This document shows, in pieces, positions 11,365 to 48,521 of a stretch of 64,000 nt of DNA; position 1 is the stretch's first letter; each line of letters begins with the position of its first letter. The notes below the pieces were generated by a model that worked only from the letters and a program-made list of their open reading frames with translations, was not told the DNA's origin and searched no databases. The DNA is from Promethearchaeia archaeon (GTDB taxonomy: Archaea; Asgardarchaeota; Lokiarchaeia; Sigyniarchaeales; SOKP01): NCBI GenBank assembly GCA_029856045.1, contig JAHQWG010000047.1, forward strand, positions 64,001-128,000, written 5' to 3'. The position numbers were made by a program, and so were the translations under genes.

Positions 11365-11554
11365 AATAATTTAAAGTAATTTTTTCACATTAAATAATTT
11401 TAATTTAATTTAAATTGAAATCCTAATGAGTTTTTTTAAGTCATAAATGAACTTCATTACAAACTCAAACAAGGCATATCCATTTTTATAAAAATTAATA
11501 TATTATAAAAATAAATTTTGGATATAAAACTATATCAGAAATAGTGTTATAATA

Positions 11555-18346: not shown

Positions 18347-18565
18347 AATAAGTAATTCTAATAAATGTTTGTTTATTCAAATTTTTTAAATATTTCAAAT
18401 GAATAATTAATTATTGGTTTATTCTTCATTCATTGATAACTATATCGTCTTCCTTTAAAATAGAAAAATTTTTGAGAAAACAGATTTTAGTGAGAATGAT
18501 TTATTTACTAAAGCTCGTTAAAAAGACTAAGAATTCGTAAATTTAACCTATAAATTCAAATAGAG

Positions 18566-19900: not shown

Positions 19901-19923
19901 AATATCTTTTCAAGAACATGTAA

Positions 19924-20076
19924 TATTTACTTTTTCAACCTTTCTTTTAATTTATTAGTAATTAGATTGCCCATATCAACTGTAGAAAGAATTTTTAATT
20001 TATCTGATTTAATATCCACAGTTCTACCTTCACCTAAGGCCTGTTCTATACAATTCTCAATATCATTTCCTATATC
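19924..20076. repeat. Direct repeat A, copy 1 (pairs with 22358-22510)
   Basis: 153 bp ungapped with 14 mismatches by manual alignment. Confidence 0.95.
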
Positions 20077-20085
20077 ATATTTCTG
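19927..20085 (-). pseudogene. leuB: Orphan copy of the leuB 3' end (about last 50 codons)
   Basis: DIGNDIENCIEQALGEGRTVDIKSDKLKILSTVDMGNLITNKLKERLKK versus LeuB C-terminus DLGKDIENCVEQALGEGRTMDIKSDNLKILSTIDMGNLITNKLKERLKK. Confidence 0.92.
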
Positions 20086-20196
20086 AATCTCTACTAATGC
20101 AAGAGATTGAGATAATATTATTTTAACGTACATCTTATTTAAAACGAATAAATGCTGAAAATTGACTAGATCCTTAAAAGCTGTAGAAAGTTGGGA

Positions 20197-21075
20197 TTAT
20201 TCATTTAGATTTATCTTTTTTTGTTTTCTTCTTTTCTGAATCAGTATATAAGCGAAAATTCCAGCAAAGGAACCAATTATTATTATAATCAGAACAAAAA
20301 ACCAAGTGAAATCTAAACCTTCGGGAATAGGTTCACAATAAATCACAATTTCTATATCTTCGGATGTTACCGTAACAATTTTTTGTCCGATTAAAACAGC
20401 TTCTTGATATACTTCAAGTTTATATATGCCAGCTGCTACCAAGAAAAAACCACTTCCATTATGGGTAAACTCAGATGTATATTCTAAATAGTTATTCGTA
20501 TCCATCAAACGATGTATTACAACTTCCACATTTGGAATTATCTCATCAGTTATATTATTTTTCACAATAAAGGTTATTTTACGAGTTTCTAAAATTTCAA
20601 ACAAGATGTTAATTTTTGCGGATGTTACTACTGGGTTTCCAGCCTGTTCTCCGCTTAATCCTAAAATATTAATACTGCTGATTCCTGTTATGGCGGGGTC
20701 TGTTATATTAATCGAGAAATCAACTGCTTGATTAGTTCCTTTCTCGAGAAGGAAATTATTTTGATTAGGAGAAAAAGTTATTCCACTCTTTTGAAAGCCA
20801 ATAGAGATGATGAGATCCTCATCACCAGTATTATAAATTCTAATCGTATTTTGGCTACCGTTAATAAATTGACCTTGGCAAACGACAAGATGTTCTATTT
20901 CTGGGGAATATGATATACCTATGCCTGTATTAGCAGTATGCGGAGAAAAAATTTGATTTATGTATTGAATTCTATTAATTGGATGCGAAGTTGAAAATAT
21001 TATTAAATTAATTATAACGGAATATAATAATAAAAAAGAAAAAAAAGATTTTATTTTTGCTTTTACAAATTTCAA
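20197..21075 (-). CDS. Membrane-anchored surface protein: signal, Ig/PapD-like domain, prealbumin-like domain, C-terminal TM
   Basis: N-terminal hydrophobic stretch, IRIYNTGD..F.L Ig-like strand pattern, IPNVEV..G.Y.LEV, then TM and KRRKQKK. Confidence 0.7.
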   Translation of the reverse strand: MKFVKAKIKSFFSFLLLYSVIINLIIFSTSHPINRIQYINQIFSPHTANTGIGISYSPEIEHLVVCQGQFINGSQNTIRIYNTGDEDLIISIGFQKSGITFSPNQNNFLLEKGTNQAVDFSINITDPAITGISSINILGLSGEQAGNPVVTSAKINILFEILETRKITFIVKNNITDEIIPNVEVVIHRLMDTNNYLEYTSEFTHNGSGFFLVAAGIYKLEVYQEAVLIGQKIVTVTSEDIEIVIYCEPIPEGLDFTWFFVLIIIIIGSFAGIFAYILIQKRRKQKKINLNE

Positions 21076-21095
21076 CCATTATTCACATACTAGTT

Positions 21096-22007
21096 TTATA
21101 CCGAAGCTATAGTTGCAGTAAGAGTAAATGTATATGTTGTATCGGGAACGCCCGTATCAACATCGAGGAATAGAGATAATTGGTGCGTTGTGCCAGCTTC
21201 TGCTGAAGGTGCATCTTGGTTCGTCTTCCAATCAGCTGCATTTGTTGTTATTTCAGTTCCACCACCCGAATCACGAGTTATTTCGAATTTTGAATCGAGA
21301 GAACTCCAAGAGCTCCTACTCAATTGCATTGTGTAATTATAATTCGCAATAGCCGTAATAGTTAAGTAACCAGAAACAGGATCTGCGATCACATTATCAT
21401 CTGTTCCAGGATTAACGCTACCAAAATTAAAATTCGCCTCGCTGATGTCAAGTGAGAAATACTTATTAACTGTAAAAGCAGTAGAAGTCATAGTACCTTC
21501 ATTACCATCATTATCAGTTGCTTTTACTCTAACATACCAATAAGCCCCAACAGCTTGCGATACTGTTGAGAATTTGAAATATGCTTTATAGTCTCCACTT
21601 ACTACAGTTTTATCACTAGGTTCTATAGAATTAGCAGAATCTACATAACCAGAAGGAGAAGATGTCCAAGTATCAGTAGAATTTACATATGTGAGTGTAA
21701 AATGATCAGTGACATTATCCGTTCCATCCCAAGCAGAATAATTAGAGTTATAAATGTAGAAAGTTAGATTATCAATATCATTCAAAGTATTATCATCACT
21801 AATAGTTGCATTAATGTAAAAATATGTATTTACATCTGTAGAAGATGGCAATGCAATTGCTGTAACAGACGGGCTTGTTGAATTTATGATAACAGAACCA
21901 TTTGAAGTATCAGATAGAGCATTAGGAATGAATATACAAAACAAAATGATAAGAAGAGCACTAAATGATAATTTGGTTAATTTTTTATATTTCATATAAA
22001 TTTTCAC
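21096..22007 (-). CDS. Secreted S/T/D-rich protein with Ig-like domain and C-terminal WxL/Csu-pilin-like domain
   Basis: Signal peptide, VRVKATD..GN, FNFGSVNPG, C-terminal GVPDTTYTFTLTATI, no TM anchor. Confidence 0.65.
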   Translation of the reverse strand: MKIYMKYKKLTKLSFSALLIILFCIFIPNALSDTSNGSVIINSTSPSVTAIALPSSTDVNTYFYINATISDDNTLNDIDNLTFYIYNSNYSAWDGTDNVTDHFTLTYVNSTDTWTSSPSGYVDSANSIEPSDKTVVSGDYKAYFKFSTVSQAVGAYWYVRVKATDNDGNEGTMTSTAFTVNKYFSLDISEANFNFGSVNPGTDDNVIADPVSGYLTITAIANYNYTMQLSRSSWSSLDSKFEITRDSGGGTEITTNAADWKTNQDAPSAEAGTTHQLSLFLDVDTGVPDTTYTFTLTATIASV

Positions 22008-22357
22008 ATTCTTGTCTTTTTATAGTTTTGTTAGCAAAATTGTATATAATTTTTAATATATTTAAATTTATCGTAATAAATGCTATTTCATCTCCTACTT
22101 AGATCTAGTTTTGTGTGTGTAAGGAGAGAGTTGTGTGTAAATAAGAATAGTAAAGTACTAAATTCAACTATTTACTCACCTTGAAAATACCCATTGAATC
22201 TTATATATAATCACCCAGCGTGTGAATTGAACGTATAAGTTCAGATACAAAAATTGTACTGTACAAATCGAAAAAAAGGGCAAGGAATAGAATTTAAAAC
22301 AAACAATTTTTTGAAATATTTATTTAAATTTTTTTTCAAACACTATCATAACTAAAT

Positions 22358-22510
22358 TATTTACTTTTTCAACCTTTCTTTTAATTTATTAGTAATTAAA
22401 TTACCCATGTCAATTGTTGATAGAATTTTTAAGTTATCTGATTTAATGTCCATGGTTCTACCTTCACCTAAGGCCTGTTCTACACAATTCTCAATATCTT
22501 TACCTAAATC
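22358..22510. repeat. Direct repeat A, copy 2 (3' end of intact leuB)
   Basis: Matches 19924-20076. Confidence 0.95.
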
Positions 22511-23431
22511 TTTCCGTTGAAAAGATTCTTCAACCATCAATTTTACACTTAATATTGTTCCCACAGGGTTTGCAATTCCTTGACCCGCAATATCGGGAGC
22601 AGCGCCATGAATTGGTTCGTACATTGATAGATTCCCAGGATTAATATTACCGCTCGGTGCCATGCCCAGACTTCCTAAAAGATAAGCAGCCTCGTCGCTA
22701 ATAATATCTCCAAATAAGTTACCAGTAACTACAGTTTGACATGTATATGGTTTGCGAATTATCCATTGACAAAACGAATCAATTAAGAAGTTCTCTTTAT
22801 CGATATTGGGATATTTCATACCTATTTCTTCAAATATCTTTCTCCACAATTGACTGCATGCTAAGACATTAGCTTTATCAACTGAAGTGATTTTTTTATG
22901 ATTCCTTTTTTTTGTATATTCAAAAGCATATTTGATAACTCTCTCGCATCCTTTACGGGTATAAAGCATAATATTTGTAGCAATTTCATCTCTTAAGATT
23001 CCCCCAATTTTTGCATATAAGCCCTCAGTATTCTCTCGAACGATAGTCATATCAATACCATCTCCTATATATTCATCTTTCAACGGACAACAATCTCTTA
23101 TCGTATCAAATAATTTAACAGGTCTTAGGTTTATATATAAATCAAAATTTTGTCTTATTTTTAAGATAGCAAGCTCAGCAACACCAGGTGGTAAATCAGG
23201 TAATCCTATCGCACCAAAAAGAATTGCATCCGACTTTTTTATAATATTTAACGATTTTTCTGGGAGGCTTTCCCCGTAAGTTTTATAGATAGATCCACCA
23301 GCAGGAGCCTCAATATATTCCATACTTAAATCTGAATACTCATTAATAATCTTAAGAATTTTTAATCCTTCATTTACCACTTCGGGACCTACTCCATCCC
23401 CCTTTATAATCGCAATTTTTTTTGTTTCCAT
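22361..23431 (-). CDS. leuB: 3-isopropylmalate dehydrogenase
   Basis: GDGVGPEV, NLRP, RENTEGLY, DKANVL, NLFGDIISD, EPIHGAAPDIAG. Confidence 0.88.
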   Translation of the reverse strand: METKKIAIIKGDGVGPEVVNEGLKILKIINEYSDLSMEYIEAPAGGSIYKTYGESLPEKSLNIIKKSDAILFGAIGLPDLPPGVAELAILKIRQNFDLYINLRPVKLFDTIRDCCPLKDEYIGDGIDMTIVRENTEGLYAKIGGILRDEIATNIMLYTRKGCERVIKYAFEYTKKRNHKKITSVDKANVLACSQLWRKIFEEIGMKYPNIDKENFLIDSFCQWIIRKPYTCQTVVTGNLFGDIISDEAAYLLGSLGMAPSGNINPGNLSMYEPIHGAAPDIAGQGIANPVGTILSVKLMVEESFQRKDLGKDIENCVEQALGEGRTMDIKSDNLKILSTIDMGNLITNKLKERLKK

Positions 23432-23599
23432 ATTAATTCAGACACCTAATAATAATATTTTAGAACATTATTTAAAAAATAAGTATATTAGAACAATTAA
23501 AAATGCAAATAACTCAATTTTTTATTGATAAAAATTGGCTCATAGAAGATTTAAAAATAATTAAATAAATTATTATCAAAAATAAAAGGAGAAAACTTT

Positions 23600-24067
23600 A
23601 TGGATGAAATAAAAACTAGATTAGAATATCGAGAAGCAGTTATTGGATCATGCACAGCTTTTATTATTGTTATAATTGTCATGATCATGCTCACGATAAC
23701 TATTTTCAGAGTGTGGCAGTTTTGGATGTGGTTTCCTGTTTTTGGAGTGTTAATTGCTGTTCTTGTTACCACGATTCAATATTTTACTGAGGGGAATATA
23801 AAAATTTGCCCAAAATGTGGAAAAAGGCTTGAAGGGACATCTCAATTTTGTAATAATTGTGGAATGAAAATCCTATCTAGATGTCATTCTTGTGGTGCGA
23901 AAGTTAATGGAGAAGTCAAATTCTGTGAACAATGCGGGCAAAAATTAGGAGATGTGATTACACCGAATGCAACCACAAAAATGGAAAATAGTAAATTCTG
24001 TCCCGAATGTGGCATTGAATTTAACCCCAATGCAAAATTCTGCTTCCGTTGCGGCACTCAATTATAA
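23600..24067 (+). CDS. 2-TM membrane protein with repeated zinc ribbons (DZR)
   Basis: Two hydrophobic helices followed by six CxxCG motifs. Confidence 0.85.
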   Translation: MDEIKTRLEYREAVIGSCTAFIIVIIVMIMLTITIFRVWQFWMWFPVFGVLIAVLVTTIQYFTEGNIKICPKCGKRLEGTSQFCNNCGMKILSRCHSCGAKVNGEVKFCEQCGQKLGDVITPNATTKMENSKFCPECGIEFNPNAKFCFRCGTQL

Positions 24068-24630
24068 TTTTTTTTATATCTCTTTTTTTTTTCAAATTTT
24101 AAGGAAAATTAAAACTTTAAAAAAAGAAGCATATAACTAATGACTTGTTTGAATTAATTAACTACTAAATCTCAAGATTTAATAAACTAATTTATCTACA
24201 ATAAATAATCTAAAAACTAATTTTAATTAGAATATTAGCAAATAATTTTAATCATGGATTATCAGAGCATTAATAATTTTAGAGATTTAAAATCTTTTTT
24301 CTTAGGCTATTTTCGTGAAGATTTGTAATAATAATTTATGAATTTTTAAATTTCTTTAACGATTAGTTAGGGTTTATGGCATTATTTTTTTTAGTCGATT
24401 TTCATATTCTCAATTTTCTAATTTTAGTTTGAGATCTCTGATTTAATGGCTCAGAGATGTTTCCAGCATCATACTTATAGAAAATCAATATTTTTGTCGA
24501 AGCATCAAAAATTTTAACCAAACTACTATTTATCGCAACATTTATTAATGAGAAAGAAGAAATGATAAATATACACCTTAAAATTAAAAATTAAAAAATT
24601 TTAAAAATAAAAAATTGGAGGAAATAAATT

Positions 24631-24843
24631 ATGGTCAAAAAAGTATTTGCATGGAGCCCAATCCGCTCACTTATGAAAAATAATGGTGCTGAAATGGTTG
24701 CAAAAGATGCAGTAGACGCATTAATTGGATATCTTGAAAAATTAGCAAAAAATGTCACTTGTAAAGCTCTAGAATTTTGCCGACACGCTGGTAGAAAGAA
24801 ATTAACCTTATCGGATATGACTCTAGCAATCAGTACATTATAA
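24631..24843 (+). CDS. Archaeal histone
   Basis: 70 aa; SPIRSLMK..GAEMVAKDA...HAGRKKL..SD histone fold; GGAGG RBS. Confidence 0.93.
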   Translation: MVKKVFAWSPIRSLMKNNGAEMVAKDAVDALIGYLEKLAKNVTCKALEFCRHAGRKKLTLSDMTLAISTL

Positions 24844-24849
24844 ATTTAG

Positions 24850-24946
24850 TTTAAAAAAATTCAAATTTTTTAACTTTTTCTTTTTTTTTTTTTCCAATTT
24901 ATGTAATAATCTTAGATTTCTATCGTTGATTCTGAAATTAAAATTA
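24850..24946. repeat. Direct repeat B, copy 1 (histone terminator region; pairs with 27535-27636)
   Basis: TTTAAAAAAATTCAAATTTTTTAACTTTTT block, CCAATTTAT, and a 44-bp block with 6 mismatches. Confidence 0.85.
24875..24893 (+). terminator. Poly-T terminator of histone gene
   Basis: Long T tract about 30 bp after the stop codon. Confidence 0.55.
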
Positions 24947-25104
24947 TTAAAAGATAATAAAAGTAGTTCTTAGAAACTTAACAAGTTAATAAATGAATAT
25001 TTATTTATTTTAGTTGAGAAGAATTAATTATTATAGACAGAATAAAAAAAATTATCTTTGATTTTATCGATATTAATGAATTAGAAGCAATTTTGTGATC
25101 AATT

Positions 25105-27141
25105 TTGAATGACATGAATATAAATTTAGAGGAAAAAAGATTTCAGAAATATCTTGATTTTGCAGGTGTTTTAATTGTAGTTATTGAAGCTGATCAAAGA
25201 GTTAGCTTTATCAATAAAAAGGGTTGTGAACTTTTAGGTTATAATAAGGAAGATGTTATTGGTAAAAATTGGTTCGATAATTTTATTCCAGAAACAATGA
25301 AAAATAAAGTAAAATCAGTATTTGATGAATTAATGGCTGGAAAAATCGAACCTATTGAATTTTTTGAGAATCCAATCATAACAAAGAAAGGTAAGGAAAG
25401 AATTATTGAATGGCACAATACAATATTAAAGGATGAGCAAGGTAAGATTTACGCAACATTAAGTTCTGGATTGGATATCACCGAGCGCAAGAAGGCGGAA
25501 GAGAAGATAAAACATCTAAATTTAGTGTTGCGAGCCATTAGGAATGTTAATCAACTTATTACAACAGAAAAGAGTTGTGAAAAATTACTTCAAGGTATTT
25601 GTGATAACCTTACAGAAACTCGTGGCTATTTTAATGCTTGGGTCGCCTTATTAGATAATTCCCACAATGTTATTATGACCGCTGAATCTGGTTTGGGTGA
25701 AGATTTTTTACCTATAGTTGAAACGTTAAAAAAAGGAGAGTTTACTAAATGCGGCCAGACAGCACTAACTCAATCCGAAGTATTAATAATTGAAGAGCCC
25801 CGTTTGACTTGCCTTGACTGTTCTTTATCAAAAAAATATGAAGGTAGAGCTGCAATGGTCGTTCGGTTGGAACGTGGAGAAAAAATTTTCGGTTGGTTAT
25901 CTTTATCCATTCCTAGAAATGTAGTTAAGGATGAAGATGAGCAAAAATTATTTAAAGAAGTCGCGAATGATATTGCTTTTGCACTTTATAGCATTGAACT
26001 TGAGGAAGAACGTGAGAAGGTGGAAAAAGCTTTAAAAGAGAGAATGAAGGAACTCGAAGCTTTTTATGAACTTTCTAAAATTGTAGAGGAACCTAATATT
26101 AAGGAAGAAATCTTAATACAAAAAATTATCAATATGATTCCAAAATCCATGCAATATCCTGAAATAACCTGTGCTAGAATTAAATTAAAGGGTCAAGAAT
26201 TTAGAACAGAGAATTTTGAAGAAACAAAATGGGTTTTAAAAAGTGATATAAAGATACTTGGAGAATTAGAGGGAACATTTGAAATTTATTATCTAAAAGA
26301 AAAACCTGAAATTGACGAAGGACCATTTATGAAAGAGGAGAAGGCTTTAATAGACGCATTAACCGAAAGGTTGGGAAGGATTATACAACGTATGGAAGTT
26401 GAGCAAAAATTAAAAGAATCCGAGGAAAAATATCGTGTGGCTTATAATCGGGCAGAATTTTATAAGGATATTTTTACTCATGATATTAATAATATACTTC
26501 AAAATATGAAATCCTCCATGGAGCTTCTTTCAACTTTTAAAAATATGTTAGAAAAATCGGATGAAGTTAACGAATTAACTAATATTATTGAAGAACAAAT
26601 CGTAAGGGGTTCAAAATTAGCTTGGAATATTCGGAAGCTGTCTCAAATTGAGGAAACCGAGAGCTCATTGGAACCTGTAGAAATATTTCAGGTTTTAAAA
26701 GAAGCTATTAATTTTATTCAAAAAAGTTATCATAATAAAGAGATAGATATTCAAATTGATTCTCAAATCAAACAGGGTTTTGTTCAAGCAAATGAATTAC
26801 TATTAGATTTGTTTGAAAACATCCTATTCAATGCAGTAAAACACAATGAAAATCCGAAAATTGAGATTTCAGTTAAAATATCTAAAGTGGATAAAGATAG
26901 GAAAAAATATGTGAAATTTGAATTTTTAGATAATGGAATTGGTGTTCCAGATGCATTGAAAAAACATCTTTTCAAGGATATTTTAAGTATAAAAAGGAAA
27001 ACTAAAGGAATGGGCTTAGGCTTATTACTTGTGAGCAAAATTCTTTCTATTTATGAAGGACAAATTTCGGTTGAGGATAAAATTAAAGGAGACCCCTCTA
27101 AAGGAAGTAATTTTATCATTTTACTTTCGGAGGTGATATAA
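25105..27141 (+). CDS. PAS-GAF sensor histidine kinase
   Basis: PAS (IGKNWFD, DITERK), GAF, H-box THDINN, N-box NAVKH, DNGIG, GMGLGL. Confidence 0.93.
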   Translation: MNDMNINLEEKRFQKYLDFAGVLIVVIEADQRVSFINKKGCELLGYNKEDVIGKNWFDNFIPETMKNKVKSVFDELMAGKIEPIEFFENPIITKKGKERIIEWHNTILKDEQGKIYATLSSGLDITERKKAEEKIKHLNLVLRAIRNVNQLITTEKSCEKLLQGICDNLTETRGYFNAWVALLDNSHNVIMTAESGLGEDFLPIVETLKKGEFTKCGQTALTQSEVLIIEEPRLTCLDCSLSKKYEGRAAMVVRLERGEKIFGWLSLSIPRNVVKDEDEQKLFKEVANDIAFALYSIELEEEREKVEKALKERMKELEAFYELSKIVEEPNIKEEILIQKIINMIPKSMQYPEITCARIKLKGQEFRTENFEETKWVLKSDIKILGELEGTFEIYYLKEKPEIDEGPFMKEEKALIDALTERLGRIIQRMEVEQKLKESEEKYRVAYNRAEFYKDIFTHDINNILQNMKSSMELLSTFKNMLEKSDEVNELTNIIEEQIVRGSKLAWNIRKLSQIEETESSLEPVEIFQVLKEAINFIQKSYHNKEIDIQIDSQIKQGFVQANELLLDLFENILFNAVKHNENPKIEISVKISKVDKDRKKYVKFEFLDNGIGVPDALKKHLFKDILSIKRKTKGMGLGLLLVSKILSIYEGQISVEDKIKGDPSKGSNFIILLSEVI

Positions 27142-27143
27142 AA

Positions 27144-27539
27144 ATAGCAACAATAATGATTGTGGAAGACGAGTTATCAATCCAAAAAATATATAAGATA
27201 TTGTTAACTTCCTCTGGATTTGATATTATTGGGATGGCAAAAAATGGAGAGGAAGCAGTAAATATGTATAAATCATTTTTAAAAAAACCTGATATTATAA
27301 TAATGGATCATCGAATGCCTGTAAAAGATGGCATTGAAGCTACAAAGGAAATCCAACAGATTGATAAACATGCTAAGATTATTTTTGCTAGTGCAGATAT
27401 AACTACAGAAAAATTAGCTATGTCATTAGGAGCACTATCCTTTAAGATTAAACCTTTCGATAATGAAAGGTTAATTAATAATATTAAAGAAAAGTTAGGA
27501 ATAGAGCCTTTTTCTAAAAAGGTTAAAAATTTAATTTAA
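27144..27539 (+). CDS. Stand-alone response regulator receiver (probable ATA start at 27144)
   Basis: IVEDE, DIIIMDHRMP, KPF. GGAGGTGA RBS lies 7 nt before an in-frame ATA; the ORF track start is ATG 27156. Confidence 0.9.
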   Translation: MATIMIVEDELSIQKIYKILLTSSGFDIIGMAKNGEEAVNMYKSFLKKPDIIIMDHRMPVKDGIEATKEIQQIDKHAKIIFASADITTEKLAMSLGALSFKIKPFDNERLINNIKEKLGIEPFSKKVKNLI

Positions 27540-27636
27540 AAAAAATTCAAATTTTTTAACTTTTTTTTTTCCCCCCAATTTATTTAGTTTAAGTAATTAT
27601 CATAGATTTTTATCGCTGATTCTAAAATTACAATTA
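27535..27636. repeat. Direct repeat B, copy 2
   Basis: Matches 24850-24946 with a small insertion. Confidence 0.85.
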
Positions 27637-27838
27637 AATATAATAAATTTTTTATTATAAGCTATTAAATATAATTGATAAGAATATTAATTGGTTTATC
27701 AGTAGGAACTTCTAATTTTGCCTTAGATACAAAAATTAGATCTTTTTATATTGACTGAAAATAAAAAGATATTTATAAAAAAGTTTAAATAAATCTAAAT
27801 GAAAAAATAAATATTACAAAAAAAGAAGATTCAATATT

Positions 27839-28537
27839 ATGGCTTCAACTATTTGTTGGTTAGATGGTATTACTGCAGTAGGAGTTGTGATTTTTGGTAT
27901 TGTAGTTGGAATTTTTTCTTATTATAAATCAAGAAAATTGGAACAAAAACTCCTTAAGTATTTTGGAATAATGATTGTTTGCGTTGGACTCCTGTATCTC
28001 GGTCCCTCCATAGATTTTTTATCAATCTTTTTTACAGGGAATAATATGGATAATTCTTTTGGATTGTACGGTATATTATGTTATATGTGGGTGGCGCCAG
28101 GCTTAATTTTTGCAATGTATCTTGGTGCAGTTCTTATCGCTCCAGAGAAGAAAACATATATTCTAATATTTTATATGATTTTAGGTATTATTTTTGAGAT
28201 ATTTTTATTTTTAGATACAGAAGGAACCTTTACATATGATTATCCCGCTATTCCTGGTGAAGATCTTATTAAATCTCACTTAAATTTAACAAGTCCAGCA
28301 TTCATATTAATAGTAATATTTCTTTTATCTGTCCTTTTTTTTAATGGATTTGGAGCATTATATAGAGCAATTCAATCAACGGGTGAATTGAGGAAAAAAT
28401 TTTTATATATTTCTTTTGGGTTCTTTTTATTTTGCATTTGTTCGATTTTTAACGCGTTTTTAGAAGATGTTTTATTTTTTGTAGTGAATATGGGAATGAT
28501 AATATATACCGTGTTATTGTATATTGGTGTAAAATAG
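27839..28537 (+). CDS. Polytopic (about 7 TM) membrane protein of unknown function
   Basis: About seven hydrophobic segments and no soluble output domain. Confidence 0.75.
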   Translation: MASTICWLDGITAVGVVIFGIVVGIFSYYKSRKLEQKLLKYFGIMIVCVGLLYLGPSIDFLSIFFTGNNMDNSFGLYGILCYMWVAPGLIFAMYLGAVLIAPEKKTYILIFYMILGIIFEIFLFLDTEGTFTYDYPAIPGEDLIKSHLNLTSPAFILIVIFLLSVLFFNGFGALYRAIQSTGELRKKFLYISFGFFLFCICSIFNAFLEDVLFFVVNMGMIIYTVLLYIGVK

Positions 28538-28798
28538 ATAAATTAAATGCAAATATTTTATATTAAAAATTTTTTTTTTCGAAAAAAGATATAGAAATCA
28601 AATAATAATAAAAGTGAAACCTTAAAACTAGTCCTTGTTATTATTTTAGATCAACTAATTGACTAGTAGGCAATTATTGAGTAACATAAAGACACTTTGG
28701 CATATTATTAATATTATTATGGATAATATTATGATTTAATCCTCGAATTTTATTTTTAATTAGACTTAGTTAATTTTAAGGAATAGAAATTATAAAAA

Positions 28799-28885
28799 AT
28801 GGAAAAAATTGGACTACAAAAATATTTTAATAAAGTAAATTTTAATTTTTTTTATAAAAATTTCATTTTTTTATCGAAATTTAAA
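28799..28885. repeat. Direct repeat C, copy 1 (pairs with 35307-35396)
   Basis: ATGGA..AATTGGA.TACA, ATTTTAATA, TTTTATAAAAA and an identical 21-mer ATTTTTTTATCGAAATTTAAA, in the same order. Confidence 0.7.
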
Positions 28886-29014
28886 ATGAATAGATACTCT
28901 CATAATTTTGAAGATATTATTTTTTAGCAATATTATTATCGAGATAAAAGGAATTGCAAGAAGTGATTAACTGGAATCTTTAACGTTAATTTAAATGCAA
29001 TTGGTGGTTAATAA

Positions 29015-29629
29015 ATGAAAATGACTAAAATAGAAAAGAAGTTTGTTAATAGTAAAGGGCATGCTCAAAAGAATATAGAACTTATTGATCAATTGTTTAG
29101 TAAAGTCGATTTAAGTAATGTTAATAAAGTATTGGAAATCGGATGCGGAGTCGGAGTAGTTTCCGCACATTTGAATAAGAATTATAAGATGGATGTTGTT
29201 GGAACAGATTTAGATCAAGAGCAGATTAAAATAGCAAAAATATATAATAAAATGAATGAAAATTTAAAATTTATTAAAGCAGATGCTATAAAACTTCCAT
29301 TTGAGAATAATAAATTTGAGATTATCTTATCACTATGGGTTATGCATCATATAAATGATTGGGGTAGGGCGTTGAAAGAAATTAATCGAGTTTTAAAGCC
29401 AAAAGGTTTTCTTATTTTCTCTGACCTCGCATATTCAAAGATATTGCTGAGTGTCGGTAATATGGTAAATTCTATTAGAATTTTTAATCCCATTGTGAAG
29501 AATTATGGTTTTTATACAATTAATGATATAATCCATTTTTTGAAGAAAAATAACTTTGAAATTATTTATAAAGAGAAGCCTAAAGGAGTAATATTTAAAA
29601 ATCATACTATAGTGTTTCAGAAAAACTAA
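29015..29629 (+). CDS. Class I SAM-dependent methyltransferase
   Basis: VLEIGCGVG, DA..LPF, LHH-like MHH, RVLKPKG. Confidence 0.92.
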   Translation: MKMTKIEKKFVNSKGHAQKNIELIDQLFSKVDLSNVNKVLEIGCGVGVVSAHLNKNYKMDVVGTDLDQEQIKIAKIYNKMNENLKFIKADAIKLPFENNKFEIILSLWVMHHINDWGRALKEINRVLKPKGFLIFSDLAYSKILLSVGNMVNSIRIFNPIVKNYGFYTINDIIHFLKKNNFEIIYKEKPKGVIFKNHTIVFQKN

Positions 29630-29870
29630 AATGAAACTTCAATATGGTGTATGTAACTCACCATGATCATATGAATTCCTAACTTTACAATTGATTATTA
29701 TGGTAATTGAATTAAGAGTAAAATGGATAGGGAATATGATATAGACATTTAAAAAAAATACATATTATTAGTTTTATTAAATATTATATGGAATTAGTAT
29801 ATAAACGAGTTGTATAAAATTATCCTTAGCATTATAAAAAGGAGGGCCATTTAGTGACTCCCGCTGAAGT

Positions 29871-30416
29871 ATGGGGAAGGTTAAAATTATGAAGAGAATA
29901 ATGATCAGTGCAAAGAGATTGGGAACTATTGCACATTACATTGGAGTGATTTGTGAGTATCTCTTTGTAATCTTTTTGGCAGTATGGCTTAATAATGTTT
30001 TGAAATTACCAAATTTGTTTAATTTTCTAATCAGGATATTTGGTCTTTTATTGTCTGCTTTTGGGTTGTTTCTTATCTTTTGGAGTAGCTGGCTTCAGTT
30101 TAAGATAGGGCAAGGAACTACTGGGTTTTCTGAGCCTACTAAGAGGTTGGTCACTTATGGGCCATATGGACATGTAAGGAACCCTATGATGGAGGGTCAA
30201 TTTCTTTTTTTTGCAGGTTTTGGATTTCTTCTGGATCTTTTAGCAATGTTTATTATACTACCAATTTTAATTCTTGCAATACATGGATTTATCGTTTATA
30301 GTGAGGAACCTAATTTAAAAAGACGATTTGGACAAGATTGGGTAAGTTATACCGAGAGAGTGGCTAGATGGTTTCCTAGAATTTATAGGACTCACAACAA
30401 CACATATACAAAGTAA
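29871..30416 (+). CDS. Isoprenylcysteine carboxylmethyltransferase / PEMT family membrane protein
   Basis: LVTYGPYGHVRNPM, EE..L..RFG..Y..V.RW. Confidence 0.88.
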   Translation: MGKVKIMKRIMISAKRLGTIAHYIGVICEYLFVIFLAVWLNNVLKLPNLFNFLIRIFGLLLSAFGLFLIFWSSWLQFKIGQGTTGFSEPTKRLVTYGPYGHVRNPMMEGQFLFFAGFGFLLDLLAMFIILPILILAIHGFIVYSEEPNLKRRFGQDWVSYTERVARWFPRIYRTHNNTYTK

Positions 30417-30549
30417 TAATAAAATACAGAATTTAGGCGGGGTGAGATTGAGAATTTGCCAGTTGCAAATAATTCAGTAGATGTAATTATAATATGAAAA
30501 ATCTAATTAAGTATTTCAATAATTGAAATAAATAAAAAATTTTACAAGA

Positions 30550-31437
30550 TTAAGTAATTTCTTGCTTTGAAGGTTGTGGAGCCTTTTCAGTTAGTTTTCG
30601 CTCAGAAATATCTTGAACTATAACTTGAATTTGGATTTCATTTTGTAATTTAACTAAAGTATTTATAACATTCACCCAAATTAATTCACCATCTTTGGTA
30701 TAAATTTGAATCTCAATAGGATTTAACTTTTCTCCTCTACACAACTTTTTATAAGCATTCTCAATCTTAGTATATGCTTTTGAAGGAAATGCTGCCAATT
30801 CTAGAAAATTTCTGCCAATTAATTCATCTTTTTTTAGGTTAAATAATCTTTCAGCAACAGAATTGCAGTCTATAATTATACCTAGAAATTTTAGTAGAAA
30901 TATCGCAAATGGAGATGTTTCAAATAAATGACGAAATTTTTTTTCTGATTCTTTAAAATCTATTGTTGTTTCTGAAACTTTTTGTTCTAACTTTTTGCAT
31001 AATTCTTTATACTTTTCTTGGGATTCTTTTATTTTTTGTTCTGCTTTTTTTTGTTTGGTAATATCTCTAATAACTGCAATGAATTTGGTATTTCCATTAT
31101 CCTTATATATTCCTCCTCTCGCTTGAACAGGAATATAATGACCATTTTTATGGCGTGTTCTATATATAACTTCTACAATATCTCCTGAATAAATTGCTTT
31201 ATTCATTTTTTTTGCAATTTCTGGCAAATCTTCTGGATGGACGAAACTGAATGCATTCATTCCAATAATTTCCTCCAGTTGATACCCAAACAAATCAAAA
31301 GATCGCGGATTTACGAATGTAAATGTCCCATTTGAATCCAATTCTATAATAGCATCTATTATACTATTAATAAGTGTGCGGTATTTTTCCTCGGAATTTC
31401 TTATTTTTTCAATAGATTTTCTTTTTTTTGATCCCAT
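30550..31437 (-). CDS. Two-PAS-domain protein without output domain
   Basis: FVHPEDL, RDITKQK, QDISERK, then stop. Confidence 0.85.
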   Translation of the reverse strand: MGSKKRKSIEKIRNSEEKYRTLINSIIDAIIELDSNGTFTFVNPRSFDLFGYQLEEIIGMNAFSFVHPEDLPEIAKKMNKAIYSGDIVEVIYRTRHKNGHYIPVQARGGIYKDNGNTKFIAVIRDITKQKKAEQKIKESQEKYKELCKKLEQKVSETTIDFKESEKKFRHLFETSPFAIFLLKFLGIIIDCNSVAERLFNLKKDELIGRNFLELAAFPSKAYTKIENAYKKLCRGEKLNPIEIQIYTKDGELIWVNVINTLVKLQNEIQIQVIVQDISERKLTEKAPQPSKQEIT

Positions 31438-31776
31438 AAAAATTTACACCTATATGGAATATCTCTTTTTAAAATTCACTCGATTTTAAATTTTTTTTTA
31501 CTAATAATGTATTCCCTTACAACTACATCTTTTTTAAACAGAAATTAATTGTTCAAAGAAATTTAATATTCTTTAACTATATAATATTTTCTATCTAATA
31601 TTACAACCATTTTCTAAAAAATAAAAAATTTGTATTAAAAAAAAAAATTAAAAAAAAAATCTAGGTTTTTTTTGACAATCTTAATCATTTAATTCTGAGA
31701 TTTAGTTAAATAAATTGTTAAATAATAATAAGTGTAAAATTATAATATATTTTTAAAACTTTAGATTTGTGCTAAT

Positions 31777-32934
31777 ATGAATATTAAAGAAGTAAATGAA
31801 CTCATTTCTCATATTTCTGAAATTATAGATTACCAAGTTAAGAAAAGAGGTCTTTTGGAATCACAACTGTTTCCAGTAACTGCTTATGTTTGTGTTTCTT
31901 TTTATAATGCCTATGATATGCTTTATGATATTTTAAAAAAAATATCTGAAAAAACCACACCAGAGCGTATGGGGAAAGAGAGTAGAAAGATTCTCTCAGA
32001 ACTCCATGCATTATCTCTGTTCTATATTCCGTTATATTATATGATTGGCAGGATGGGAGAAATCCAGAGAAATAATGGGGATCCAAAAAGTGAAACTAGA
32101 GAGAAGAGGGAACAAACTATGTTTATTCTTGATTTCTGGAAATGTTTAGCTTCTTCATATTTCCTTGATAAAAAACTGACTGTTTATGATTCAAATAAGA
32201 TAAATATTGCTTTAAATCAACCTGATATAGAATGGTCGATAAATCAAATCATGGACGTAACTAGTGAAAAGGCTGTAGAGATTAAGAAAATAATGGGGAA
32301 TCTTGAAGTTGTCTCATTTCTTGATGAATGTGAAGCAAGAGCAAAAATATGTGACCACGGACCTTATAGAATCAGTGAGAATGAAATTATGATCTTCAGA
32401 GAAATTATGCATCTATATGACGGTAAAAAACCACACTTTCCATGGTCGGCTACTGAAGCAAAGGCACCTTATAGTAATATCGCTTTTGCATTTAGATTAA
32501 AAGATGTAGATGCAAAATTTGATGACTTCGCAACAATGACTACTACTCCTCTCAATTTCTCAGAAAATATAACAGGTGTTGCTTTATTTACACGAGATGG
32601 AAACACTGTGAAACCTATTGAGTTTGATGTCATAGATGCATTTAGTGATTATGCAGTAAAAGCTAATAAAGAATTATTTCTAAAATTCTCAAAATGGGAT
32701 AGGAAACAGCGTTTAATCGCGGGAGCATTTGCCTATTGCTATGGATATGCGAGGTATACTAATTTTGTGGGTATTACAGACCAAATAAACTGGGAACTCA
32801 CAGAACGAACGATGAATAAATACATTCCAATCTTCATGGAAAGCGATTTTGATCCTGGCATACCTAGATTATTCAGAAGTAAGCGACAAGTAGCTAAGGA
32901 AGGACCCTCCTTATATCTCCTACCTGAGGATTAA
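31777..32934 (+). CDS. Uncharacterised soluble protein (385 aa)
   Basis: Long ORF with enzyme-like motifs (ES.LFPVTAY, DECEAR..DHGPY, FPWS); family not assignable with confidence. Confidence 0.8.
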   Translation: MNIKEVNELISHISEIIDYQVKKRGLLESQLFPVTAYVCVSFYNAYDMLYDILKKISEKTTPERMGKESRKILSELHALSLFYIPLYYMIGRMGEIQRNNGDPKSETREKREQTMFILDFWKCLASSYFLDKKLTVYDSNKINIALNQPDIEWSINQIMDVTSEKAVEIKKIMGNLEVVSFLDECEARAKICDHGPYRISENEIMIFREIMHLYDGKKPHFPWSATEAKAPYSNIAFAFRLKDVDAKFDDFATMTTTPLNFSENITGVALFTRDGNTVKPIEFDVIDAFSDYAVKANKELFLKFSKWDRKQRLIAGAFAYCYGYARYTNFVGITDQINWELTERTMNKYIPIFMESDFDPGIPRLFRSKRQVAKEGPSLYLLPED

Positions 32935-32939
32935 TTAAA

Positions 32940-33860
32940 ATGACTCCAGAAGAAAGGGATCATACATTATCAGAAGATTTTGAACTATTCCACAAACCTA
33001 ATAACGATTTAAAATGGAGAGAATCTTATTATTTCAATTGGGCGGACCTAAAAAACAAGATTTCAGGTTTTTCTACAATTGGAATATTACCTAACGATAA
33101 AAAAAGAGAACTCGTTTTTGTTCTTTTCTTGGACAACAAAATGGAAGTTTATTATAAGGAACCTTTTTTAGAAAACTACGTGAATGACATTAATATCATG
33201 TTAAGAGATAATAAATTAACCTATAAAATGATTAAACCCCTTCAAACATGGGAGATAGATTATAAGTGTAGGAAATTTGAATTTAACTTGACTTTTAAAA
33301 CGAGATTTTCACCTTTTAATTTTGGACAAGATTCCTCTAGGTCTTGGCATCGACATTTTGAAGCGTCAGGAATAGTTAAAGGTGTAATAAAGTTCAAAGA
33401 TAATAGTATTAGGACGATTCATGGTTTTGGTGAACGAGATAAAAGTTGGGGGTATAGAGATTGGCATCAATTTGACAAATGGTTCGCTGGTCATTTCCAA
33501 TTCAAAAAATGGTCATGCGCATTCCGAAAAGATTATGAAAAGAATAAAATTAACCTTTCAGGGTATATTGCAAATGAAAAAGGTAATACTCCACTTGCTC
33601 AGCTTGATATCAAAACTATTAATGATACTGATCAATTTCAAAGTCCTCTTACGTCAATGTATATTATCACTGATATCGAAGGTAAGTCATATACTATCAA
33701 GTCAAAACGAATGGAACAAAATAGTTATATACGGTTTGCAAGAGAGTTTCCAGGAGGGTATACTGAATTATTTGAACAGATGGTCATTATGGAATCTATT
33801 GACACAGGTGAAATTGGAACGGGCATGACAGAGTATTTACGCACTATAAAATCGGATTAA
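32940..33860 (+). CDS. CrtC/tocopherol-cyclase-like beta-fold protein (DUF7064/7065-like)
   Basis: WRESYYFNW and HFEASG..G.....GERDKSWGYRDW motifs. Confidence 0.65.
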   Translation: MTPEERDHTLSEDFELFHKPNNDLKWRESYYFNWADLKNKISGFSTIGILPNDKKRELVFVLFLDNKMEVYYKEPFLENYVNDINIMLRDNKLTYKMIKPLQTWEIDYKCRKFEFNLTFKTRFSPFNFGQDSSRSWHRHFEASGIVKGVIKFKDNSIRTIHGFGERDKSWGYRDWHQFDKWFAGHFQFKKWSCAFRKDYEKNKINLSGYIANEKGNTPLAQLDIKTINDTDQFQSPLTSMYIITDIEGKSYTIKSKRMEQNSYIRFAREFPGGYTELFEQMVIMESIDTGEIGTGMTEYLRTIKSD

Positions 33861-34092
33861 CTAATTTTTTCAATTCTTAATTGCTCTCTATTCGTAATAA
33901 TAATCTTATAGAGAATTTTCTTTTCTACAAAAAATATTTTATTATATTTAGGAAACTTTGTAGTAATATTATCTTAATTTAACTTCATTGGTTTAATTTT
34001 TAGAAATCTTTATATAGACTAAAATTGATGTAATAACAATTAAATTAACAATACTCGTTAATTTTTTAAAAATAAATGGAGCTTTTTTAATT

Positions 34093-34962
34093 TTGTGTGA
34101 TTGGTGTTTAAAACATGGTAATGGGAAAAAGTGGTATATGAATGCTAAAAATTACTCTAATGAGCTTGCTAAGGATTTAGATTTGGAAGATTATTTAACA
34201 GAACAGTGGATGAATTTTGAAACTGTTTTTATTAGAAAAATTATGGGTATTTCTTCCAAAGGTCTGGGATACAAACTCAAGATGCCTATTATTGGGAGGG
34301 TATTACGTTGGCTAGCTGAGAGGATGATTCATAGTGAAAGTAAAAATAGAAACCCTATGAGAGCTGATGGCCATTTTGGACAAGTTTTACCTTTGGAGGA
34401 CGCACAGATTATTCTCTCTGAGTTAGCTGCTGAACCAATAATGGAAAACTACTGTATGTGCCGATGGATGCAGAAAGGAAAAAAAGAAGCTTGTTGCATC
34501 AATTTTGGTGTATTATCTGGAGTTATAGAGAAACTTCCAAGATTTATTCCAAAAGACAGAGTTGTAATGTTAGATCGAGAACAAGCAATGGAGAGATTGG
34601 AAGAACATAATAAAAAAGGCTATATAGCTTCTGTCTGGTTTCAACCAGTACCGTATATATGCGCTATATGTTCATGTGAAACTCCTGAATGTGGCGGACT
34701 TCGTTTAAGAAATGATTTCAATTTGAAAGCTGTATATAAGGCAGAATATATTATTCAATTAGATCATGATAAATGTGAAGGATGTAAGGCATGTGTATCT
34801 ATGTGTCAATTCAGCGCTATAAGATTTATACCCTCAATAAATAGAGTCATGATAGATTATGATAAATGTTTTGGGTGCGGGGTCTGCCGTCATGCATGTA
34901 AATTTGATGCATTACACCTCATTCCAAGAGAAGAATATCCAGGATTTGATGGAAAATACTAG
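34093..34962 (+). CDS. 4Fe-4S binding protein
   Basis: CMCR, ICAICSC..C, and two C-terminal CxxCxxCxxxC motifs. Confidence 0.85.
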   Translation: MCDWCLKHGNGKKWYMNAKNYSNELAKDLDLEDYLTEQWMNFETVFIRKIMGISSKGLGYKLKMPIIGRVLRWLAERMIHSESKNRNPMRADGHFGQVLPLEDAQIILSELAAEPIMENYCMCRWMQKGKKEACCINFGVLSGVIEKLPRFIPKDRVVMLDREQAMERLEEHNKKGYIASVWFQPVPYICAICSCETPECGGLRLRNDFNLKAVYKAEYIIQLDHDKCEGCKACVSMCQFSAIRFIPSINRVMIDYDKCFGCGVCRHACKFDALHLIPREEYPGFDGKY

Positions 34963-34970
34963 GTGATTAT

Positions 34971-35225
34971 ATGAGTAAAACAAAAATAAGAATAGATTAT
35001 TCAAAATGTGGAGAGAATGGGAAGGTCGACCCCAGAGATTGCCGTAAATGTCTTGAAGTATGTGATCCATGTGTCTTTTTAATGCACGAAGCGTTAGGTT
35101 ATAAAGAAGAGGACCCATATAATCCACAACATTGGCGAATCACACCAGTATGGCCCTCTGTTTGTACACGCTGTTTCTATTGTGTTAAAGCATGCCCTGA
35201 AAAAGCAATAAAGATATCTTGGTAA
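34971..35225 (+). CDS. Small ferredoxin
   Basis: C..CRKCLEVCDP and CTRCFYCVKACP; AGGTGA RBS. Confidence 0.85.
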   Translation: MSKTKIRIDYSKCGENGKVDPRDCRKCLEVCDPCVFLMHEALGYKEEDPYNPQHWRITPVWPSVCTRCFYCVKACPEKAIKISW

Positions 35226-35306
35226 TTATTTAAGCTCTTTTCTTTTACCTTATTTAATAAATTGTATGTCCAATATTTCTTCCTTCTAAATAAATATTTT
35301 AAAAAT

Positions 35307-35396
35307 ATGGACAAGAATTGGAATACATTAATTTTAATAGAAAATTAGAGTTCCAATTTTATAAAAAAAAATCTTATTTTTTTATCGAAATTTAAA
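35307..35396. repeat. Direct repeat C, copy 2 (contains hairpin AATTGGAA..TAATTTT-N5-AAAATTA..TTCCAATT)
   Basis: Matches 28799-28885. Confidence 0.7.
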
Positions 35397-35406
35397 TGGG
35401 AGAATT

Positions 35407-35763
35407 ATGATAGGGTTTAGAAGAGGTATACAATTAAAAATGAGTGATTTTGATAATTTCTCGGAGATTGATTATTATGATAAAATCCTTCAATTTTTTT
35501 CTTCGAAAAATAGAAACGCAGAAGAAACAGAGAGATGGAAGGAATCAATGATAATTGAACTTATGAAATTATTTAAGAAGAAAGAAAAATCAAGTAATTT
35601 AATTGAAATTAAGAATTTAATTCAAAATGCAATAATTCTAATTCTTTCACTTTCAGAAAATATACCTCTCGATTATTACGATACAATGGGTAAAGATTCA
35701 AAAAATCTTTCTTTAACTGAAAAAAAAGAATTAAAAAATAAATTATGCAAATTAATTGCATAA
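35407..35763 (+). CDS. Hypothetical protein (likely start ATG 35440)
   Basis: ORF with GAGGT RBS before MSDFD. Confidence 0.65.
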   Translation: MIGFRRGIQLKMSDFDNFSEIDYYDKILQFFSSKNRNAEETERWKESMIIELMKLFKKKEKSSNLIEIKNLIQNAIILILSLSENIPLDYYDTMGKDSKNLSLTEKKELKNKLCKLIA

Positions 35764-48446: not shown

Positions 48447-48521
48447 CGGACCCGGAGGGATTTGAACCCCCGTAAACCACCTTAGGAGGGTGGCGCGAGA
48501 TCCAGGCTTCGCGACGGGTCC
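48447..48521 (-). tRNA. tRNA-Arg (CCU)
   Basis: Acceptor GGACCCG/CGGGTCC, anticodon arm CCACC-CTCCTAA-GGTGG, T loop TTCAAAT; CCA not encoded. Confidence 0.96.

Follow-up and report, generated by a model that had tools for sequence, protein, structure and literature searches.

Candidate recombinase-free insertions flanked by diverged gene-end copies in a Lokiarchaeia genome

Three unique repeat pairs downstream of a Ras-family gene

We analyzed a stretch of 64,000 nt (the window) from the genome of a Promethearchaeia archaeon (G000; 3.34 Mb in 55 contigs, estimated contamination 3.5%) and compared it with three congeners (G001, G002 and G004). Downstream of a Ras-family GTPase gene, the window carries leuB, an archaeal histone gene and several blocks of accessory genes, among which lie three pairs of direct repeats. 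All three are real, and no repeat copy has a better match in the 3.34-Mb genome than its partner: repeat A (19924–20076 and 22358–22510; 153 nt, 91% identity, 214 bits), repeat B (∼24842–24960 and 27528–27645; ∼115 nt (112–127), 79–80% identity with one indel, ∼100 bits versus 46 bits for the next-best genome match) and repeat C (28790–28885 and 35297–35396; 77% over 102 nt, 66 bits versus 45 bits for the next best). These scores, together with the 21-nt exact core of repeat C, which occurs nowhere else in the genome at ≤2 mismatches, rule out that B and C are motifs dispersed through the genome.

The initial annotation had read the three pairs as the brackets of three successive cassettes captured without an integrase. 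Its description of the gene content of the blocks agrees with Pfam and other annotation of the window. The bracketing itself did not survive comparison, as the segment at A also includes a glycoside hydrolase gene and the left repeat copy, the kinase pair assigned to block B is present in G002 and block C has no border. Two of the three claimed cases (A and B) hold up: an integrase-free insertion beside a gene end, accompanied by a partial, diverged duplicate of that end, is real at A and likely at B, and C shows no cassette border.

A derived insertion between Ras and leuB

The features around repeat A are as follows.

16775–18346, + strand: Ras-family GTPase gene (Pfam Ras, 1e-48), conserved left flank
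18381–22354, no strand: G000-specific segment of ∼4 kb (synteny BLAST and junction alignments; borders good to ∼30 nt)
18566–19900, + strand: family-4 glycoside hydrolase (GH4) gene (Pfam Glyco_hydro_4), within the inserted segment
19924–20076, − strand: left copy of repeat A, an orphan leuB end comprising the last 50 codons and the stop (alignments)
20197–22007, − strand: two predicted surface-protein genes (292 and 303 aa; signal peptide, S/T/N-rich, C-terminal TM anchor), cargo
22358–22510, − strand: right copy of repeat A, the functional leuB 3′ end (alignments)
22361–23431, − strand: whole leuB gene (Pfam Iso_dh, 3e-105)

Ras and leuB are convergent and directly abut each other in the three congeners and in seven other genera. 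The ∼4 kb that separates them in G000 (18381–22354) is therefore a derived insertion, with the Ras–leuB adjacency as the ancestral state polarized by the outgroup genera. The segment, which holds GH4, the orphan and the two surface-protein genes, is missing from G001, G002 and G004, where the flanks are otherwise colinear, and it is larger than the block originally delimited. Both copies of repeat A align to one single-copy target in the relatives, and the empty site is present in all three congeners. The predicted empty allele, with GH4 adjoining leuB, was not found; in the relatives, Ras adjoins leuB. The orphan leuB end sits inside an open 68-aa ORF (19927–20133). A putative third copy of the Ras–leuB spacer near Ras was dropped, as it was not significant (P = 0.3).

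The GH4 gene of G000 is only 74% identical at the nucleotide level to those of the congeners, whose GH4 loci lie elsewhere, with flanks missing from G000. For the surface-protein genes we found no Pfam match, no DNA match among 20 relatives and, at the protein level, nothing in 150 genomes of the same order; the close homologs, 95% and 85% for the 303-aa protein, come from metagenomes only. Two collection scans for a donor gave only relatives at 27–36%, and the arrangement of this cargo beside leuB was absent from every genome searched.

A second copy of the histone downstream region

Repeat B lies downstream of the last conserved gene of the backbone.

24631–24843, + strand: archaeal histone gene (Pfam CBFD_NFYB_HMF), last gene of the family-wide conserved backbone
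24842–24960, + strand: left copy of repeat B (alignments, synteny)
25105–27539, + strand: PAS-GAF histidine kinase and receiver genes (Pfam, synteny)
27528–27645, + strand: right copy of repeat B, G000 only (alignments, synteny)
27839–28537, + strand: 7TM gene, coding for a membrane protein from a large multicopy family; probably the gene gained in event B

By alignment, repeat B is a second copy of the region downstream of the histone gene. Its first part (B1, 24842–24893), an AT hairpin followed by a T-run, trails the histone gene in all four genomes, and its second part (B2, 24894–24960) is common to G000 and G002 only. The kinase and receiver genes, formerly taken for the inserted block, occupy the same site in G002, which has no right B copy. 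In G000 this copy begins 4–8 nt past the end of the G002 homology (27520) and adds a 9-aa C-terminal extension to the receiver protein. The 7TM gene is missing from this site in G002, G004 and G001, and its best match among 134 family genomes reaches 52% amino acid identity; it is more likely the newcomer of event B than the kinase pair. No genome had the predicted empty allele, in which the 7TM gene would come straight after the histone gene, and the empty site at B is partial, with only B1 present in all relatives. Terminator-like elements trail three genes at this locus.

Repeat C predates the genus

The region of repeat C contains the following features.

28716–30427, + strand: variable segment with Methyltransf_11 and PEMT genes, present in G004; G001 and G002 have different genes in its place
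28790–28885, + strand: left copy of repeat C, upstream of a methyltransferase gene, 95% conserved in G004
30421–30490, no strand: internal gene remnant, a deletion scar in G000; the gene of 266–273 aa is intact in three congeners
35297–35396, + strand: right copy of repeat C, immediately upstream of ORF 35407–35763, 91–96% conserved in three congeners

Block C is colinear with both flanks in G004. No indel border falls at either repeat copy. Block C is therefore not a cassette and repeat C does not mark the border of one, contrary to what had been proposed. The similarity between the left and right copies is 75–77% in every genome compared, and repeat C is an old, unique local duplicate of an upstream region that is older than the genus. 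In five other genera, outgroup synteny stops at the histone gene, short of repeat C. The intact G002 counterpart of the remnant at 30421–30490 is a Methyltransf_31 gene (Pfam).

Inserts carry no recognizable mobility genes

As the initial annotation had stated, Pfam and other profile scans of the window recognized neither an integrase nor a transposase. The whole genome contains a single tyrosine recombinase (PF00589), which lies on a different contig (C8:1445–1963); serine recombinases were covered in the window and among the cargo proteins. Pfam and NCBIfam searches of the 58 cargo ORFs found no recombinase in any cargo and none common to them, nor did any cargo hold a transposase. The genome contains no multicopy IS-like repeats, and no integron-type integrase was found in it. 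Family scans recognized no endonuclease gene in the cargo of A, B or the analogous loci described below. The only families shared between cargos are methyltransferases, PAS domains and ferredoxins, and this cargo-wide comparison ruled out a hidden enzyme common to them. There is likewise no common attachment site, every locus having a different target, and no tRNA target, the sole tRNA gene of the window being at 48447.

The architecture of A recurs across the genome

The same architecture as at A was found at at least 15 loci in the genome. Among same-contig repeats <15 kb apart, 252 are direct and one is inverted, whereas longer-range pairs on the same contig show direct-to-inverted ratios of 12:18 and 3:5; short isolated repeats number 49 direct and 0 inverted. 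We compared A with sites elsewhere in G000 (C8, C27, C27c, C29, C46, C49a, C49b and C54). Eight loci, A and seven analogues, were tested for a clean empty site with a single-copy target, and six of them have one: at A, C27c, C29, C46, C49a and C8, the insert is missing from a relative with colinear flanks. The empty site is partial at C54, and C49b offered no usable one. Aligned to the empty genome, the two copies overlap by 253 nt at C29, 84–91 nt at C46, 80 nt at C49a and 44 nt at C8. Across loci, the repeats measure 44–301 nt, the inserts are without mobility genes and every orphan is an end fragment that keeps register with its flank.

C27 holds two cassettes in a row, separated by a junction element that occurs three times, and a swapped copy of the 5′ end of the downstream gene is present there as well; this locus may have arisen by integration of a circle or by a tandem duplication with later deletion. 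The C49a architecture is also present in the independent assembly G004, and the orthologous orphans are 90% alike. Tandem paralogs are very common in G000. Integrase-free insertion with a diverged gene-end copy is recurrent in this genome.

Divergence and polarity of the copies

Between intact and orphan copies, dN/dS was 0.15–0.24 at five loci, with A at 0.15. The two leuB tails have a dS of 0.34, equal to between-species divergence in the genus; being as different as congeneric species, and mostly at synonymous positions, they fit DNA of related lineages. Pooled over loci, pN/pS was 0.28 versus ∼0.55 expected, and the pooled dN/dS test gave P-values between 2e-4 and 0.08, according to which mutation spectrum was assumed. 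At C29, C54, C46, B and C, mismatches fell into clusters and left long runs of identity; identical runs inside the repeats span 20–59 nt, and the 41-nt run at A was not significant (P = 0.15). Taken together, low dN/dS and clustered mismatches favor recombination, by the host, with diverged DNA of related lineages.

The polarity of the copies differed between loci. The orphan at A has 14–17 differences from alleles R, G002 and G001 and 22 from that of G004, and the alleles are star-like, with 13–17 differences in every comparison without G004, in which the leuB end has also recombined (allelic replacement of the tail). The private changes of this orphan, three synonymous and five nonsynonymous, fit neutral decay of an old in situ copy. 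At C29 and C49a, the orphans are the outliers (85% and 77–80%) and the intact copies are 96.4–98.8% identical to those of the congeners. The proposal that the orphan is the displaced resident copy thus runs against these two readable loci, where the orphan is the outlier copy. Nearly all divergence at C29 falls on the orphan branch, where 16 of 31 changes are nonsynonymous versus 74–80% expected and neutrality was rejected under all mutation spectra tested. Beside the intact C29 copy, no imported high-identity tract was visible, identity being 86–98% throughout. The copies of the youngest case, C27c, are ∼98% (97.8%) alike, and both are 86–90% identical to relatives.

Discussion

We lean, with modest confidence, towards reading the stretch as a recombinase-free plasticity zone on a Ras–leuB–histone backbone, in which A and B would be insertion scars left by host recombination with DNA of related lineages. 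Incoming DNA would have carried a partial copy of the target, either a gene end or a downstream region, beside its cargo, and one exchange would have taken place inside that homology. The other joint may have been non-homologous, or circular DNA may have integrated by a single crossover. By either route, the cargo would end up with the intact target on one side and a partial, diverged copy on the other, the two always being direct repeats, and one of the two copies would be of foreign origin. The insertions, the empty sites, the single-copy targets, the lack of mobility genes, the orientation bias and the recurrence are observed here; the foreign origin of one copy and the recombination route are inferred from them.

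Parts of this pattern resemble known systems. Homology-facilitated illegitimate recombination, reportedly described in naturally transformable bacteria, also fixes DNA beside a homologous anchor without a dedicated recombinase, and the anchor copies here differ like alleles of related lineages; its classical products are said to be insertion-deletions without a duplicated anchor, whereas the anchor is duplicated here. Campbell-type integration of a circle by a single crossover always gives direct repeats of the homology around the cargo, in agreement with the swapped copies of the flank at C27 and with the stretches of identity in otherwise diverged repeats; the homology here, however, is short (50–300 nt) and diverged, and the cassettes are known as integrated sequence only. 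Flexible (replacement or additive) genomic islands likewise hold different gene sets per species between conserved flanks without mobile-element genes, but a double crossover in such flanks leaves no partial duplicates, and the scars here record one-sided events. Relics of a gene 3′ end also pile up downstream of the working copy in the WHO homing elements at yeast FBA1, which reportedly require an endonuclease gene within the element; no endonuclease is recognizable in the cargo here, which at A comprises two surface proteins and GH4. Integrase-borne integrative elements (attL/attR) differ in having a recombinase in or beside the insert and a common site, transposons and IS in their transposase, their multiple copies and their terminal inverted repeats, the short repeats here being 0 inverted versus 49 direct, and integron cassette arrays in their IntI integrase.

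Closest in architecture is insertion with long target duplication (Nobusato et al. 2000, as cited in Furuta, Abe and Kobayashi 2010, PMC2853133), described there for bacterial restriction-modification genes with copies 93–100% alike; in the account of the screen given in that paper, no archaeal case passed (PMC2853133). Shared features are an empty site with a single-copy target, a copy of the target at either end of the insert, inserts free of mobility genes and repeats (44–301 nt here) that are unique in the genome. The differences lie in the cargo, which here consists of ordinary accessory genes at at least 15 loci in one archaeal genome, and in the copies, most pairs being 78–91% identical with low dN/dS.

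Such a duplication arising in situ is a real, if on the whole unlikely, alternative to recombination with related-lineage DNA. Foreign cargo would have entered at staggered breaks or by template switching during replication, so that 50–300 nt of the resident target were copied on both sides and later diverged, the functional copy sometimes being overwritten by allelic recombination. Six loci show the architecture that Furuta et al. 2010 (PMC2853133) require. The copies would be expected to be each other's closest relatives, as they are at C27c, where both are equally far from relatives, but not at C29 or C49a, and A is star-like. The neutral look of the private changes of the A orphan suits this explanation, and allelic replacement of the leuB tail, as in G004, could mimic low dN/dS. 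Against it stand the pooled pN/pS, about half the expected value, the shortage of nonsynonymous changes on the C29 orphan branch and mismatches that are clustered rather than uniform at several loci, and its simple version leaves the swapped 5′ end copy at C27 unexplained.

It is improbable that the orphans are what deletion left of full second gene copies, whether xenologs or tandem paralogs. Low dN/dS would be expected of them, tandem paralogs abound in this genome and the remnant at 30421–30490 shows that deletion remnants occur here, but the orphans are invariably in-register end fragments, the empty sites have a single target to which the two copies align, and an extra whole-gene insertion plus a precise deletion would be needed at each of at least 15 loci. 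Still less credible, and in our view very improbable, is site-specific integration by an integrase or nuclease that acted in trans or was lost, as in decayed integrative, integron-like or homing elements. The three junction-element copies at C27 and the terminator-like elements at B recall such systems, and the identical runs of 20–59 nt could be read as cores; however, the one tyrosine recombinase lies on another contig, the target differs at every locus and is never a tRNA gene, and besides methyltransferases, PAS domains and ferredoxins no family runs through the cargos, the cargo proteins at A being surface proteins. We give hardly any credence to an artefact of metagenome assembly mixing related strains. 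The fragmentation into 55 contigs, the 3.5% contamination estimate and a copy divergence typical of related strains or species would be compatible with one, but a strain switch inside a shared stretch would yield a hybrid gene, whereas here the gene is intact and accompanied by a truncated copy that runs into unrelated DNA, chimeric joins would not yield a 252:1 orientation bias, and the C49a architecture recurs in an independent assembly.

The pattern has so far been known only for bacterial restriction-modification genes, and at least 15 archaeal loci with ordinary cargo widen its scope. Extending the recombination reading, gene-end fragments might serve as portable attachment sites: cassettes of a gene end plus cargo would circulate in Loki-type lineages, with RadA-type recombination of the host sufficing for them to loop out and re-enter. 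Such traffic would be a main route by which Asgard archaea gain genes and expand their genomes. We offer this as speculation and consider it doubtful in this full form.

Asgard genomes are large and accessory-rich, and the way they gain genes bears on the gene repertoire of the archaeal ancestor of eukaryotes. The footprint described here, a gene-end direct repeat around cargo with a single-copy target in relatives, can be counted and thus lends itself to Asgard-wide screening. Lineage-specific blocks that bear none of the hallmarks of mobile elements would be explained by a route of gain for which host recombination and a short, diverged stretch of homology are enough.

Direct-repeat pairs in the window and across the genome

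The window corresponds to C51:64001–128000 of a 3.34-Mb genome (55 contigs, roughly 29% GC), which the names of its homologs suggest is that of a Loki-type Asgard archaeon. All three repeat pairs described in the initial annotation were recovered in place and in direct orientation. In a whole-genome comparison, the top match of each copy was its own partner: repeat A spans 153 nt at 91% identity (214 bits), repeat B 112–127 nt at 79–80% (about 100 bits vs 46 bits for the second-best match) and repeat C 102 nt at 77% (66 bits vs 45 bits). The 21-nt core of repeat C had no further copy in the genome at ≤2 mismatches. Since the partners are the best genome-wide matches and the C core occurs nowhere else, repeats B and C are not the dispersed motifs that the initial annotation had named as evidence against its cassettes. 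Its account of the gene content of blocks A–C agreed with the window annotation, and, as it had noted, no recognisable integrase or transposase was found among the window-encoded proteins.

Genome-wide, same-contig repeats <15 kb apart were direct in 252 cases and inverted in one, with no bias at longer range; for short isolated repeats the counts were 49 and zero. An isolated repeat surrounds cargo at at least 15 loci, often as a gene end plus an orphan, i.e. a partial copy of that end beside the cargo. Six of the eight loci tested, including locus A, had clean empty sites, each with one single-copy target (44–253 nt) to which both copies map. The cargo genes are of ordinary types, and methyltransferases, PAS domains and ferredoxins are the only families that cargos share. 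SAM-dependent methyltransferase genes were strikingly frequent, both in cargo (29015–30416, C46, C49a, C49b, C11 and C54) and in the relatives' alternative blocks. The whole genome encodes one tyrosine recombinase and holds no IS-like multicopy repeats.

A cassette behind a RuBisCO-like gene is common to G000, the genome under study (C49:33934–37496, L045), and its congener G004 (G004:C10, L095), with orthologous orphans that are 90% alike; it is not present in the congeners G001 and G002, a distribution that conflicts with the leuB-body tree.

An insertion between the Ras GTPase gene and leuB

The three congeners compared (about 92% nucleotide identity) are syntenic with window positions 10000–43779. 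In each of them, only about 60 nt of spacer separate the Ras GTPase gene from the leuB 3′ end, and this direct adjacency recurs in seven other genera. This distribution marks it as ancestral, so that the about 4 kb at 18381–22354 in G000 is, by sequence comparison, a derived insertion. It comprises a GH4 gene and two surface-protein genes, with the orphan leuB tail between them. Repeat A's left copy, previously taken as a cassette border, lies inside this G000-specific DNA. The GH4 gene is only 74% identical to those of the congeners, which sit at other loci. No donor DNA was found for the insertions; the surface-protein genes had no relative among the 150 genomes of the order searched, and their homologs (95% and 85% identity) came from metagenomes. 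A further variable spot lies at about 11533–11541, with extra DNA of about 1.5 kb in G004 and 3.2 kb in G002; leftward of it, identity falls to 84%.

The orphan and intact leuB tails of G000 differ by a dS of 0.34 (dN/dS 0.15), matching the divergence of whole-gene leuB between G000 and its congeners (dS 0.27–0.30). The orphan differs at 14–17 sites from allele R (apparently the intact G000 tail), G002 and G001 and at 22 from G004, and its private changes are three synonymous and five nonsynonymous. Its frame is still open (19927–20133), and a gained ATG with 18 new N-terminal codons yields a predicted 68-aa ORF. In G004 (L002, G004:C5), the leuB body is nearest to G001 and G002 (dS 0.09–0.10), whereas the last 50 codons (cf. 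window 22361–22510) are nearest to G000 (dS 0.066), and the adjoining spacer is unlike those of all other genomes compared. The G004 tail records a separate recombination at the same gene end as event A; its switch to the G000 type identifies this end as a recurrent recombination breakpoint.

Events downstream of the histone gene

Repeat B's left copy is native DNA 3′ of the histone gene. All four genomes have the part with the hairpin and T-run, whereas the remainder occurs in G000 and G002. The right copy, confined to G000, starts 4–8 nt past the end of homology to the G002 receiver gene and lengthens the receiver protein by nine residues. G002 has the kinase–receiver pair without the right copy or the membrane-protein (7TM) gene (27839–28537); G004 and G001 lack all three. 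The simplest reading of event B is that the right copy and the 7TM gene came in behind the receiver gene. No genome was found with the previously proposed empty allele, a histone gene followed directly by the 7TM gene. The 7TM protein belongs to a family with 2–12 copies per genome throughout genomes of the taxonomic family, its closest member being only 52% identical. Within the histidine kinase gene, a 35-nt stretch (26398–26436) codes for a conserved linker motif and is found again, at 87–97% identity, in many kinase paralogs of G000 and related genomes.

Block C did not hold up as a repeat-bordered cassette: G004 is colinear over the block and both its flanks, and the repeat falls at neither of the nearby indel borders (28716 and 30427). 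Both repeat C copies are kept in the congeners (91–96%), with left and right 75–77% alike within every genome, so the pair predates the genus. In five other genera, synteny stops at the histone gene. The histone-to-PAS interval carries different ordinary genes in each species (regulators, DUF6125 genes, methyltransferases, ferredoxin), and none of its genes in the compared species encodes a recombinase. At 30421–30490, G000 retains 63–70 nt from inside a 266–273-aa gene, a deletion scar; G001, G002 and G004 have this gene intact (Methyltransf_31 by Pfam in G002).

Origin of the duplicated ends

The second copies could derive from recombination with diverged DNA or from simple copying in situ. 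Taken alone, locus A may represent an old in-situ copy, and C27c, the youngest case, fits either origin. Three findings favour the first of these origins. Between orphan and intact copies, dN/dS was low at five loci (pooled pN/pS 0.28 vs about 0.55 expected; P between 2e-4 and 0.08 according to the mutation spectrum assumed, with small counts). At C29 and C49a, the orphan is the outlier, the intact copy matching the congeners. Finally, at C29, C54, C46, B and C, mismatches are clustered and the copies share long stretches of identity.

A two-cassette insertion at C27:514799–519049 (L043), missing in all three congeners, carries three copies of a 65-nt junction element that is not in the empty site. 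At this C27 locus, the 3′ end of the upstream gene (98%) and the 5′ end of the downstream gene (96%) are copied in swapped order, suggesting a circular or tandem-junction intermediate. Diverged-DNA recombination may have left such scars through homology-facilitated illegitimate recombination or single-crossover integration. The architecture found in this archaeon matches insertion with long target duplication as defined in the literature, a pattern to date described in bacteria only (PMC2853133).
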